Shown in pieces: positions 1-3,000 of a DNA stretch of 9,387 nucleotides. The stretch is from IMG/VR virus record IMGVR_UViG_2684623171_000015. One strand, written 5' to 3'. Numbering within the stretch: the first letter of the stretch is position 1; each line of letters begins with the position of its first letter. A program made the position numbers. The stretch comes from a virus. Taxonomy: Duplodnaviria > Heunggongvirae > Uroviricota > Caudoviricetes.

Positions 1-3000
1 TGTCAGTTATCATCTTCGGTTACGGTTATCGGCAGAACGCCCTGCCGCTGACAAGAGCTTATTTGCCTGACCAATCTACTCCACATGATAGATAACTATC
101 ATTTATAACATTTCATTGATTAGTCTTTATTTTTCACTATGTTACAAATAACAACTCCGTCAAAAACAGCGAAATTAACTACACCATTAACTACACCGTT
201 TCACGAACAATATCGAACAACCACGAACAAAGATCAACACGCTTTAACCGTTATCATTTTCCGGCCATCCGTTATGAAGCTGGTGGATGTTCCCCGATAT
301 GGGTATCCCCACCTACCTGGCTTTTTTTCCGGTTAAATGTTAATCAGGCTGGTGGCCTTTACATACCCTTGATCACGGTAATGATGATTCAGGTGCGTAC
401 CTTTTCCCCAGTGGGGTAAAAGCTCCAACCGTAACGATGTTCGTTGTGGTTGCCTTGATGGTCTGCGTGGTCATTATGACCATTCAGAATTTGAAGGGTG
501 ATGTTTCCGATCTCCTCAAATTGAGGATTGTGGAAGAATCAATGGGTTAGTCTTACTTTCCCAACATCCCCCAATGGGGGTTTTCGAAATAATCAATGGG
601 TTAGGCCATAGTGCAATTTTGCACTATGGAACAATTCCAACCAGTTATCGGCATCAGGCCCACCAGCCAACGCAATTTTGCGCTTTGCTTTAATCTCAGT
701 AAGTTACCGCGCCAATTTCCGCAGTCTGTGGAAATTGGGAAGAATCAACGGGTTAGGCTGGTTTCCCCGATGTTCGCCGCTGGCGAATTTCGAAAATATC
801 AACCAGTTACCGCCGTATCCCGATATGGTGATCCCCATATCGAGATTGGATACCTGGCTTTTTTTCCGGTTAAACGTTAATCAGGCTGGTGGGCTTTACA
901 TACCCTTGATCACGGTAATGATGATTCAGGTGCTTCCCCGATATGGTGATCCCCATATCGGGATAGATGCTGGAAAAATCAGCTTTTCGCCAGAACGGTG
1001 ACGGCCTTATCGAGTTTTTGCCATCCGCAATAGGTGATTGCCCTGAACGCTGTAGCGTCATTCTGGAAAAGGCTAACCGCCCCTGATTCGGTTTTTATTA
1101 CCGCCTCATCAGTTGGGGTTATAACCGTGGCTTCAACGTTAATAATCAGCTTTTGAGCGTCTATCAGCATCATGCGATCCGCCTGTTCGCTCACAATTAC
1201 CGGTATTCTCAAAAGCTCTATCTGCCAGAACTCAGCATCAGTAAGCTGTAAGGCGTTTTCTACGGGCAATATTAGCGACGACGTGGAAAGCGTGTTACCG
1301 TTCGCTATGTGCTTTTTGAAAATCTCTATGAAGTTTTCGGCCTCATCAGCACCATTAAGCACGCCCTCAGGGGATACGCCAGCCACCTCCTGATCACTGG
1401 AAAGAAATTTTTTATCTATTTCTTTCACCGATTCCGATGTGATCAAGTCTCTGATCGCTGAATTTGTACCAGGGGTGCTAAATTTGATTAGCTCGTTATT
1501 CAGCATCACAATAGCGCCAAGTTTGCACAATTTTAGCGCACTTTCGTTTACTTCTCCCTCTTTGACAGGGATTTCTTCGGCTTCTTTAAGCCATTTACTA
1601 CCCTTGCCTGATATTGAATGCAATTTTGCGCCAAACGGAAGATTAAGCGCGCTGCTGATTAGCTTGCCTGGTACAGACTGCGAAAAAATATACTCGCCAA
1701 GCTCTCTTACTATCGGCTCTGCCACCAGCGACGGCATGTTATCCGTAGTCATTCTGTTGACGATGGATTTTTCAAGAAATTTCGATACTGCCGGATCATT
1801 TCTTTTCGTCATCTCTATAGCGTCAGCATGGCTAAATTTACACGATGCCAGCACGCTGGCGGCGCGAACTGCTGACACGCCTTTCATGTTTTTACAGATC
1901 ATCTTCTTCCTCCTCCTGGAAGCACGGGTTTAGTGTTTCGTGAAAATATGGCATCAGAACAGCGGCGGCCTGTAACCGTATTTCGGTCGACTGCTGCTTG
2001 TCGTTCATGATTTCCGTGAGTACATCAATAGGGTCTGTGATGTATTCGCTCATAGTTCGCTACCTCAGTGTTTTAAGTCTGTTGGTGGCTTAGGGATGGG
2101 GAACCGATTTGAGTAGACACTAGCGGCATTGAGTTTTTTAACCTCTTTTTTCCCAATGCTGCCGATCTTGCGGTGGGTGAACTGGGCCAGCTTAAACGCG
2201 GCATCTAAAGCCAGTTTTGGATCTGTGTCCATGTTGTCAATCAGTATCCTGCCCATTGCTTTGATGGGGTCGGGTAGGCCGTTATCCATCATCTCAATGG
2301 TGTTAATTGATGCCCGTTCCGGTGTAACTTTTTCGGTAACTTTCTTTGTAACTTTTTTCGGTTTTGTAACCTGAAAAGTTACATCAGAAGTTACAGCCTT
2401 AAGATACTTTTTCACCTCAGGATCGTTGGATAGCTGCCAGCCTTTAACCCTTGCGGTCTTTTCGCTGTATCCCGCATGTATAGCGGCTTCCGTGGGATTT
2501 GCGCCCCTTGATAACGCATCAGCAAACCGCTTTTTTTTGGTCGTTAATGCCATGCAAAAACCTCGTTTTGAGGGGGTGTAACTTTTCGTGTAACTTTTTT
2601 GAAAAGCAAAATTTTCTACGAATGAGACGGGGGGCGGTGTCCAGGGTGATCGACTTTCCGGCCGGAACACTCCCCCCCCCCATGTCATTGCTCACCGAGT
2701 AACGAGATCAGGCCTTCAACTTCATTACTCAGCTTGTTTATTCGTGTCTCAAGCTCTGCGATCTTTTCCATCAATGGCGCTATGGTGTCTCTTGTTTCCT
2801 CGCCAATGGCCTTAATGATGCTTGCCTCGCGTTCTGTGATAGCCATTTGTTATGCCTCACCTGTTGCAATGCCCAGTCTTTCGCGTAACAGCACACGTGC
2901 AAGATGACCTATTGTTGGCGTGGCGGCTCTGCCGTAGATGCCAGCTTCATTCATCCGGCGAATAACATCGAATTGAATTTTTTTAAGCTCGTTTAGGATC

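Follow-up and report, generated by a model that had tools for sequence, protein, structure and literature searches.

The window analyzed in this study, a 9,387-nt stretch of DNA recorded as a Caudoviricetes virus (IMG/VR record IMGVR_UViG_2684623171_000015), has the layout of a phage satellite island and carries a gene for a small terminase of 162 amino acids (aa), terS (2065..2553, minus strand). Copies of the heptamer AAGTTAC are clustered inside this gene and directly upstream of it. We consider it probable, from sequence comparison, that these repeats are cosB-like recognition sites for the island TerS, that they belong to an HNH-type cos site with 3′ overhangs, and that they lie partly within the terS coding sequence. 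The initial annotation had described phased GTAAC repeats at 2324-2600 as a candidate pac site. Its proposal that TerS recognition sites lie in and next to terS gains support here from the fixed distance between the motif and a conserved cut-site block and from a motif type that follows the TerS lineage.

On the plus strand GTAAC occurs at 2324, 2336, 2348, 2366, 2578, and 2590, and on the minus strand at 2378 and 2390. All positions given earlier for four direct and two inverted copies within terS were therefore recovered; the uniform 12-bp phasing was not, as the in-gene spacings are 12, 12, 18, 12, and 12 bp. The two further copies reported just upstream of the start are present at 2578 and 2590, 12 bp apart and 25-41 nt 5′ of the terS ATG (2553). 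The pentamer itself is only mildly enriched (23 in the window vs. 13.4 expected). Allowing at most one mismatch, the extended unit GTAACTTTT has 11 matches against 2.7 expected, seven of which are in 2324-2598. AAGTTAC is found nine times against 0.9 expected, with seven copies within 280 bp, whereas the largest cluster in 2000 dinucleotide shuffles contained two. The real repeat unit is AAGTTAC rather than bare GTAAC.

Two tandem non-coding 12-mers, AAAAAGTTACAC and GAAAAGTTACAC on the terS strand (2576..2599, minus strand; +31 to +49 from the predicted cut), sit just 5′ of the terS ribosome-binding site. Within the gene, three direct copies with 12-bp spacing (AAAAAAGTTACA, AAGAAAGTTACC, and GAAAAAGTTACA; 2322..2357, minus strand) encode KKVT KKVT EKVT. 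A degenerate copy (TTCAGGTTACAA; 2364..2375, minus strand), 18 bp from the next one, encodes FQVT, and its GTAAC at 2366 (GGTTACA on the terS strand) is without the AAGTTAC heptamer. Two copies in the opposite orientation (AAAAGTTACATC and AGAAGTTACAGC on the plus strand; 2374..2397) correspond to AVTS DVTF on the terS strand; they belong to inverted repeats I1 and I3-I5 and are inverted at the level of the heptamer, beyond the choice between the valine codons GTA and GTT. Read on the coding strand, the in-gene copies encode AVTSDVTFQVTKPKKVTKKVTEKVT, with VT at each fourth residue over aa 54-77, as expected from the earlier observation that the internal repeats appear in the protein as KVTKKVT. 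Tandem non-coding copies keep the 12-bp spacing as well (-43/-31 in the window; -50/-38 and -106/-94 in L082, a second E. coli island type with the order HNH-terS-capsid), so the spacing is not just codon periodicity.

A non-coding block upstream of terS is common to all relatives, including islands, a Hafnia prophage, Shiga toxin (Stx)-type phages, and Citrobacter prophages. It consists of a G-run, about 30 nt, the sequence GGACACCGCCCCCC(C/G)TCTCA, and then an A-rich stretch. In the window the left element is a run of 10 G on the terS strand (2672..2681, minus strand) just after the stop codon of the upstream open reading frame (ORF), and a G-run lies at the equivalent place in each of these groups. 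The core GGACACCGCCCCCCGTCTCA, assigned by homology to the shared block, occupies 2623..2642 (minus strand), and the core 21-mer (≤5 mismatches) was found upstream of terS in 25 related loci. Phage Lys8385Vzw is reported to have 3′ cohesive ends with the cos sequence CGCCCCCCCT (PMC7946995); its deposited record ends with ...GGACACCGCCCCCCCT and begins with CTCACGCAGAG, i.e., the break falls inside the shared core. At 74-83 nt upstream of terS the window matches nine of 10 bases of this published end. The predicted 10-nt 3′ cohesive end of the island is CGCCCCCCGT (2627-2636, minus strand), with the terS-strand cut predicted between 2627 and 2626. Since CGCCCCCCGT is the counterpart of the Lys8385Vzw cos end, the whole 131-bp gap at 2554-2684, from the upstream ORF to terS, looks like a cos region, probably of the HNH-dependent kind with 3′ overhangs that serves a large group of lambdoid prophages, Stx phages among them. 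The functional unit would reach beyond the previously noted span of 2324-2600, to about 2684. As in a cosB, the repeats lie beside the cohesive-end cut on its terS side, judging from homology to the Lys8385Vzw block, and the first AAGTTAC is about 31 nt past the predicted cut, a position comparable to that of the TerS site in HK97 (+15 to +29; PMC11331095). They comprise seven copies of a motif that appears specific to the cognate TerS, its type following the TerS lineage.

Because this cos block is shared, and because the phage relatives encode HNH-TerS-TerL, the repeats are better termed cosB-like, and the pac label is not supported, given the match of nine in 10 bases to the Lys8385Vzw end. 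Pac phages such as P22 typically have recognition sites within terS, and the repeats here are indeed in or next to terS. A headful pac site would require that TerS binds the phased repeats, that the first cut is made imprecisely nearby, and that packaging ends by headful termination. Such a site would suit the SF6/SPP1 fold of TerS, and in an SPP1-type pac TerS makes contacts to either side of the cut and inside or close to terS (PMC9611059). We nevertheless regard it as quite unlikely: the cut-site block is held in common with a phage of reported fixed 3′ cohesive ends, the HNH-TerS-TerL arrangement of the phage relatives points to cos packaging, to which HNH proteins have been tied (PMC9611059; preprint 10.1101/2022.09.08.507074), and the sites, like those of lambda cosB, are all found to one side of the core instead of flanking it. 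Judged indirectly from the closest phages with the same core, the island would not have the imprecise cuts and terminal redundancy of a pac system.

Several smaller features of the cos region were recorded. The G-run varies in length among E. coli alleles (10 G after T in the window vs. 7 G in three others), and this homopolymer length could modulate cos function or be a sequencing artefact. Between the G-run and the core there is a perfect 12-bp palindrome, TTCCGGCCGGAA (2656-2667), which is kept in E. coli alleles and absent from more distant relatives. A likeness of the plus-strand sequence GGGGGGCGGTGTCC to lambda cosN was set aside because it has the opposite orientation and the ends of this family are 3′ overhangs. 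An AT-rich stretch (TTATTCA...) was seen by eye in the spacers of L082 and of Stx phages and might be a site for integration host factor (IHF). Similarly, AT-rich TTTATTATTCAG and TTTTATTCAACAGG (L090 3790-3990 and L082 5780-5990, respectively; by eye) lie between the first and later sites, where lambda has the IHF site I1.

The TerS product, annotated in RefSeq as "terminase small subunit," scores 42.4 bits against Pfam PF03592 (cut-off 26.1) and can be assigned to the Terminase_2 family (SF6/SPP1 G1P-like). Its AlphaFold2 model, built with 14 homologues, contains a confident four-helix N-terminal domain (aa 5-56) and C-terminal helices (aa 96-146). The N-terminal helix-turn-helix (HTH) domain matches the DNA-binding domain of the SF6 small terminase (4zc3; target TM 0.87, root-mean-square deviation 1.5 Å, 30% identity), and a sequence search of the PDB with the TerS profile returned a single, weak match, the Pam5 small terminase. 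Residues 57-84, the linker that carries the repeats, have a predicted local distance difference test (pLDDT) score below 50. The repeats thus appear to fall in a disordered linker, where the protein can best tolerate a sequence imposed by DNA.

Relatives of the same TerS lineage were identified by protein search at 51-65% identity, and eight diverged terS genes of the lineage, with aa identities of 51-73%, represent E. coli, Hafnia, Salmonella, and metagenomes. Among the loci are, besides L082, Salmonella islands (L088 and L089), a complete Hafnia prophage with the order HNH-TerS-TerL-protease/capsid-portal (L085 and L086), and a contig on which terS adjoins TerL (L095). In every relative of the lineage at least one AAAAGTTACAC precedes the ATG by 31-38 nt and follows the conserved core at a near-constant distance of 26-28 nt. 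Linker copies are likewise present in every one of them, in the form of one or two inverted GTAACT followed by one to four direct AAAGTTACA. The idea that satellites have more sites than phages was dropped, as the counts overlap (1-5 upstream, 2-5 internal).

These distances bear on a possible role of the repeats as operators, through which TerS or another regulator would act on the terS-capsid operon at the level of transcription or translation. The upstream pair precedes the ribosome-binding site by 10-35 nt, short tandem and inverted repeats are typical of operators, and a regulatory role of this pair could coexist with one in packaging. The motif, however, keeps a fixed distance from the cos core and not from any promoter, and its type follows the TerS lineage. 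It is also retained in true prophages, whose terS is part of a long late operon, and no sigma-70-like promoter was found in a scan of 2000-3800. An operator function as the explanation of the repeats is therefore unlikely. A terminator-like match at 2560-2577 (plus strand) was judged to be due to chance because of its location on the non-coding strand and its overlap with the ribosome-binding site.

The eight diverged terS genes of the AAGTTAC lineage were also used to compare codon usage between six repeat columns and 34 other four-fold conserved columns. Over sequence pairs, the mean same-codon fraction is 0.80 in the repeat columns and 0.35 in the others (Mann-Whitney p = 3e-4; Fisher p = 0.008); these genes share descent, and the p-values overstate their independence, although the direction of the effect is still clear. 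As the other four-fold columns share a codon in just 35% of pairs, synonymous sites are well diverged. The two repeat valine columns use GTT in 8/8 and 7/7 genes, while each of two other conserved valine columns has three different codons, and one repeat threonine column, in the inverted copies, is ACT in 7/7 relatives. Four E. coli terS alleles, which have seven differences in the N-terminal part, are 100% identical across the repeats and the upstream pair. The suggestion in the initial annotation that the DNA signal may constrain the protein is supported by the invariant GTT of the repeat valines beside the varied codons of the others, and a partial dual coding of the AAGTTAC repeats in terS is likewise supported by these comparisons.

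A lysine-rich KVT linker could also have arisen by 12-bp slippage as a feature of the protein only, its likeness to the upstream copies being functionless. Copy number does differ by whole units among alleles (P0003 and P0004, with one or two fewer KVT units, are 8 and 4 aa shorter, respectively), a disordered linker tolerates repeats, and Stx phages manage without in-gene copies. Conservation at third positions, however, is confined to the repeat codons, every relative keeps the same 7- to 11-mer in non-coding DNA, and two other lineages carry their own, different upstream motif in the linker. We consider this explanation very unlikely.

The comparison across TerS lineages bears most directly on a role of the repeats as recognition sites. 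In the phage collection, the closest phages are Stx1a-, Stx2a-, and Stx2c-converting phages and related prophages, with TerS 46% identical to that of the island. Such Stx-type relatives carry the same core block and an HNH-TerS-TerL-head-portal module. Within 160 nt after the core they have five TGTTAAC/GTTAACA sites and no AAGTTAC, and their TerS linker is different, longer, and free of recognition sites. In Citrobacter-type prophages (31-33% identity) the core is kept and two copies of TGTTAAC lie across the start codon; the linker of one of these prophages contains TGTTAACAG again. The metagenomic IMG/VR viral contig L107 (45% identity) contains two copies of GTTAACCC upstream and a single one in the linker. 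The motif thus differs by TerS lineage, occupies the same place relative to the cut, and returns in the linker in three lineages, and this argues most strongly that TerS reads the sites. That each of these three lineages has its own upstream motif back in the linker further suggests that the in-gene copies are DNA signals and not a protein feature. Scans of larger collections added few loci. Among GTDB species representatives, the TerS alignment recovered only distant relatives (≤33% identity in Enterobacterales, otherwise N-domain-only), among which use could be made only of the Citrobacter-type loci L002, L004, and L005; most matches in IMG/VR were either near-identical copies or distant N-domain hits, with L107 and L108 as the only informative loci (L108 ambiguous).

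A number of observations weigh against the assignment of the repeats as cosB-like TerS sites. The cos assignment goes back, by homology, to one PhageTerm result. At 235-310 nt past the predicted cut, the in-gene copies are more distant from it than the TerS site of HK97 is from its own (15 bp, +15 to +29 from the cos cut; PMC11331095), and since Stx phages are without such copies, this cos family does not require in-gene sites. Alleles with one or two fewer KVT units also exist. Shared descent, together with homogenisation of repeat units by slippage or conversion, inflates the apparent conservation. Moreover, the putative recognition helix AGYSxKTARVKGxQL is nearly the same in TerS of the AAGTTAC and TGTTAAC types. 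Identity between the island and Stx-phage TerS is 59% in both the N-terminal and the C-terminal part and thus gives no clear sign of a specificity swap; a domain-swap idea was dropped on these grounds. GTTAC and GTTAAC differ by one base; the difference in specificity may therefore be small, and cross-recognition is possible.

If the repeats are cosB-like sites as proposed, a TerS oligomer would bind the AAGTTAC sites, spaced by 12 bp, through its N-terminal HTH domains. Two proximal, non-coding sites would lie 31-49 nt past the cut, and five or six more would be in the linker-coding part of the gene, where they are read as (K/E)KVT. Bound TerS might then recruit TerL of a helper lambdoid phage and its HNH partner to the island cos core, the G-run and GGACACCGCCCCCCGTCTCA marking the place at which the helper large terminase would cut. 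Island concatemers would be cut to 10-nt 3′ ends and packaged from there in the direction of terS.

Such an arrangement resembles several known systems without matching any of them in full. Like lambda cosB (R3-I1-R2-R1 for gpNu1, next to cosN), it would have repeated TerS sites on the terS side of a precise cut, and like PICIs (phage-inducible chromosomal islands) of the EcCICFT073 type, it keeps a helper-like cut site with differing recognition sites. In EcCICFT073 the adaptor Rpp retargets the phage TerS to an island-specific cosB (PMC6739421; PMC9026076), whereas the island studied here encodes its own TerS. It differs from both systems in that this TerS has an SF6/SPP1 Terminase_2 fold and not that of gpNu1, that the predicted ends are 3′ overhangs of an HNH-type system, and that most recognition sites sit inside the terS coding sequence. 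HK97 shares HNH-assisted cos cleavage, 3′ overhangs, and a TerS site shortly downstream of the cut; its TerS, however, is without an HTH and reads a single site as DNA passes the central channel, in contrast to the HTH-type TerS and multiple repeats of the island.

Among systems with SF6/SPP1-like proteins, the G1P pac of SPP1/SF6 is similar in the homologous N-terminal DNA-binding domain and in having sites upstream of and inside terS over about 270 bp. SPP1 packages by headful and is cut between two contact regions, while all island sites are on one side of a cos-type core. Satellite TerS homologues that pair with the helper TerL and direct packaging are known from Staphylococcus aureus pathogenicity islands (SaPIs) in the form of TerS_S with a SaPI-specific pac (SaPI1/SaPIbov1), and by analogy the island TerS may act likewise; those islands, however, are packaged by headful, and the evidence for the present island points to cos with a helper-like cut site. 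SaPIbov5-type islands with Ccm (PMC5052747; PMC8569155) share an association with HNH-dependent cos helpers, a helper-like cos, and a capsid homologue, but SaPIbov5 has a complete helper cos and no TerS of its own, whereas the present island brings a TerS of its own together with different recognition repeats.

E. coli strain 9000 has a 100% identical copy of the window in its chromosome, with the element placed between clpS and cspD. Close copies of the island were found in 220 of 5426 complete E. coli genomes, and the carriers listed are mostly O157:H7, O103, O111, and O121 strains. Every substantial gene is on the minus strand, including those for an integrase (9387..8164), an AlpA regulator (7302..7078), a D5-type primase (5467..3713), and a homologue of HK97-fold capsid proteins (979..1902; Pfam PF05065). 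Small ORFs are present in addition, as is a 53-aa ORF listed between terS and the capsid homologue. The gene set and order are those described for Gram-negative PICIs (PMC6092414), which notes of terS only that some of these islands carry a homologue. With an integrase, AlpA, a primase with an adjacent replication origin, unidirectional genes, a length of about 10 kb, and no tail or lysis genes, the window is, by its gene content, a PICI-type phage satellite of enterohaemorrhagic E. coli (EHEC).

It does not belong to the capsid-forming PICIs (cf-PICIs) of the EcCIEDL933 type, which are defined by capsid, protease, portal, head-tail connectors, HNH, TerS, and TerL (preprint 10.1101/2022.09.08.507074), since the window is without portal, protease, HNH, and TerL genes and has only terS and one capsid homologue. 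The latter shares 24% identity (E 5e-21) with the capsid portion of the head protein (645 aa) of Stx phage Stx2a_WGPS2 and may be a candidate modifier of capsid size or assembly, like Ccm in SaPIbov5.

A dense field of iterons, GGTAGAGGG(C) in both orientations, extends over 3471..3706 directly 3′ of the primase gene and comprises repeat families D2-D6 and inverted pairs I2, I7-I12, I15, and I16. Its position agrees with that of the PICI origin in PMC6092414, and the field is probably the replication origin of the island. As short, phased repeats in direct and inverted orientation on a replicating element, the AAGTTAC copies might themselves seem to be part of an origin. We rejected this identity because a separate GGTAGAGGG field occupies the usual place of a PICI origin; AAGTTAC, moreover, travels with terS and is also found in prophages with unrelated replication modules, so an origin function for it is extremely improbable.

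The Stx-type cos-terS module was identified in 1253 of 5426 E. coli genomes, with up to eight copies per genome, and E. coli FORC_028 (NZ_CP012693.1) has the island and five such modules in one genome. Resident Stx-type lambdoid prophages are accordingly abundant candidate helpers as far as genome content can indicate. That the satellite family parasitizes HNH-type cos phages of EHEC (Stx1, Stx2a, and Stx2c converting) by retaining the helper cut site, using its own TerS and repeats, and placing recognition sites in frame within terS is possible, if somewhat short of probable. With recognition sites moved into the terS frame, the disordered KVT linker would be largely the translation of a DNA packaging signal. 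If true, this would represent a dual-coding arrangement common to phages and satellites and a third route of packaging redirection beside SaPI TerS_S/pac and Rpp/cos.

TerS recognition repeats beside a cut and redirection of packaging by satellites are already known in kind. In the literature searched, by contrast, three elements appear to be undescribed: a Gram-negative PICI whose own TerS would act on a helper-like cos core, a definition, for this large family of EHEC prophages, of cos core and recognition repeats, and in-frame recognition sites within a TerS linker. If correct, the assignment would provide a sequence-level packaging signal, composed of cut site and repeats, for a prophage family found in about one-quarter of complete E. 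coli genomes, and this signal would cover both Stx-converting phages and a satellite that may hijack them. It would also mean that a Gram-negative PICI redirects cos packaging through its own TerS and not through an Rpp adaptor, and it would offer a clear example of a DNA signal dictating the sequence of a protein linker. Testable predictions follow for interference with Stx phages and for the engineering of packaging specificity, as the recognition module is small and apparently exchangeable between lineages.

Other loci with related terS genes have features of their own. L082 (5700-6474) has its own HNH gene and a long spacer in which both motif types are mixed, with five AAGTTAC and one TGTTAACA site, and relatives of the L082-type terS adjoin a type I restriction-modification system in L096 (5001-10474). 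In Salmonella, the terS module of L088 (1532-7993) is only a few kb from genes for a phage protease/capsid fusion and a portal on the same contig, and a prophage of the candidate helper type may contain this island or lie beside it. L093 (2187-5341) has the order terS-orf50-orf321 followed by a 451-aa product with the TerL nuclease domain only, which could be a truncated or interrupted large terminase gene beside an island-like module. An Rfam scan of the window found nothing. The 860-bp gap between the capsid homologue and clpS (window 270-965) contains an 88-nt direct repeat (314-401 and 851-938, 95% identical) and several copies of the palindromic element CCCGATATGGTGATCCCCATATCGGG; these repeats could be related to the attachment (att) site or represent a small repeated element.

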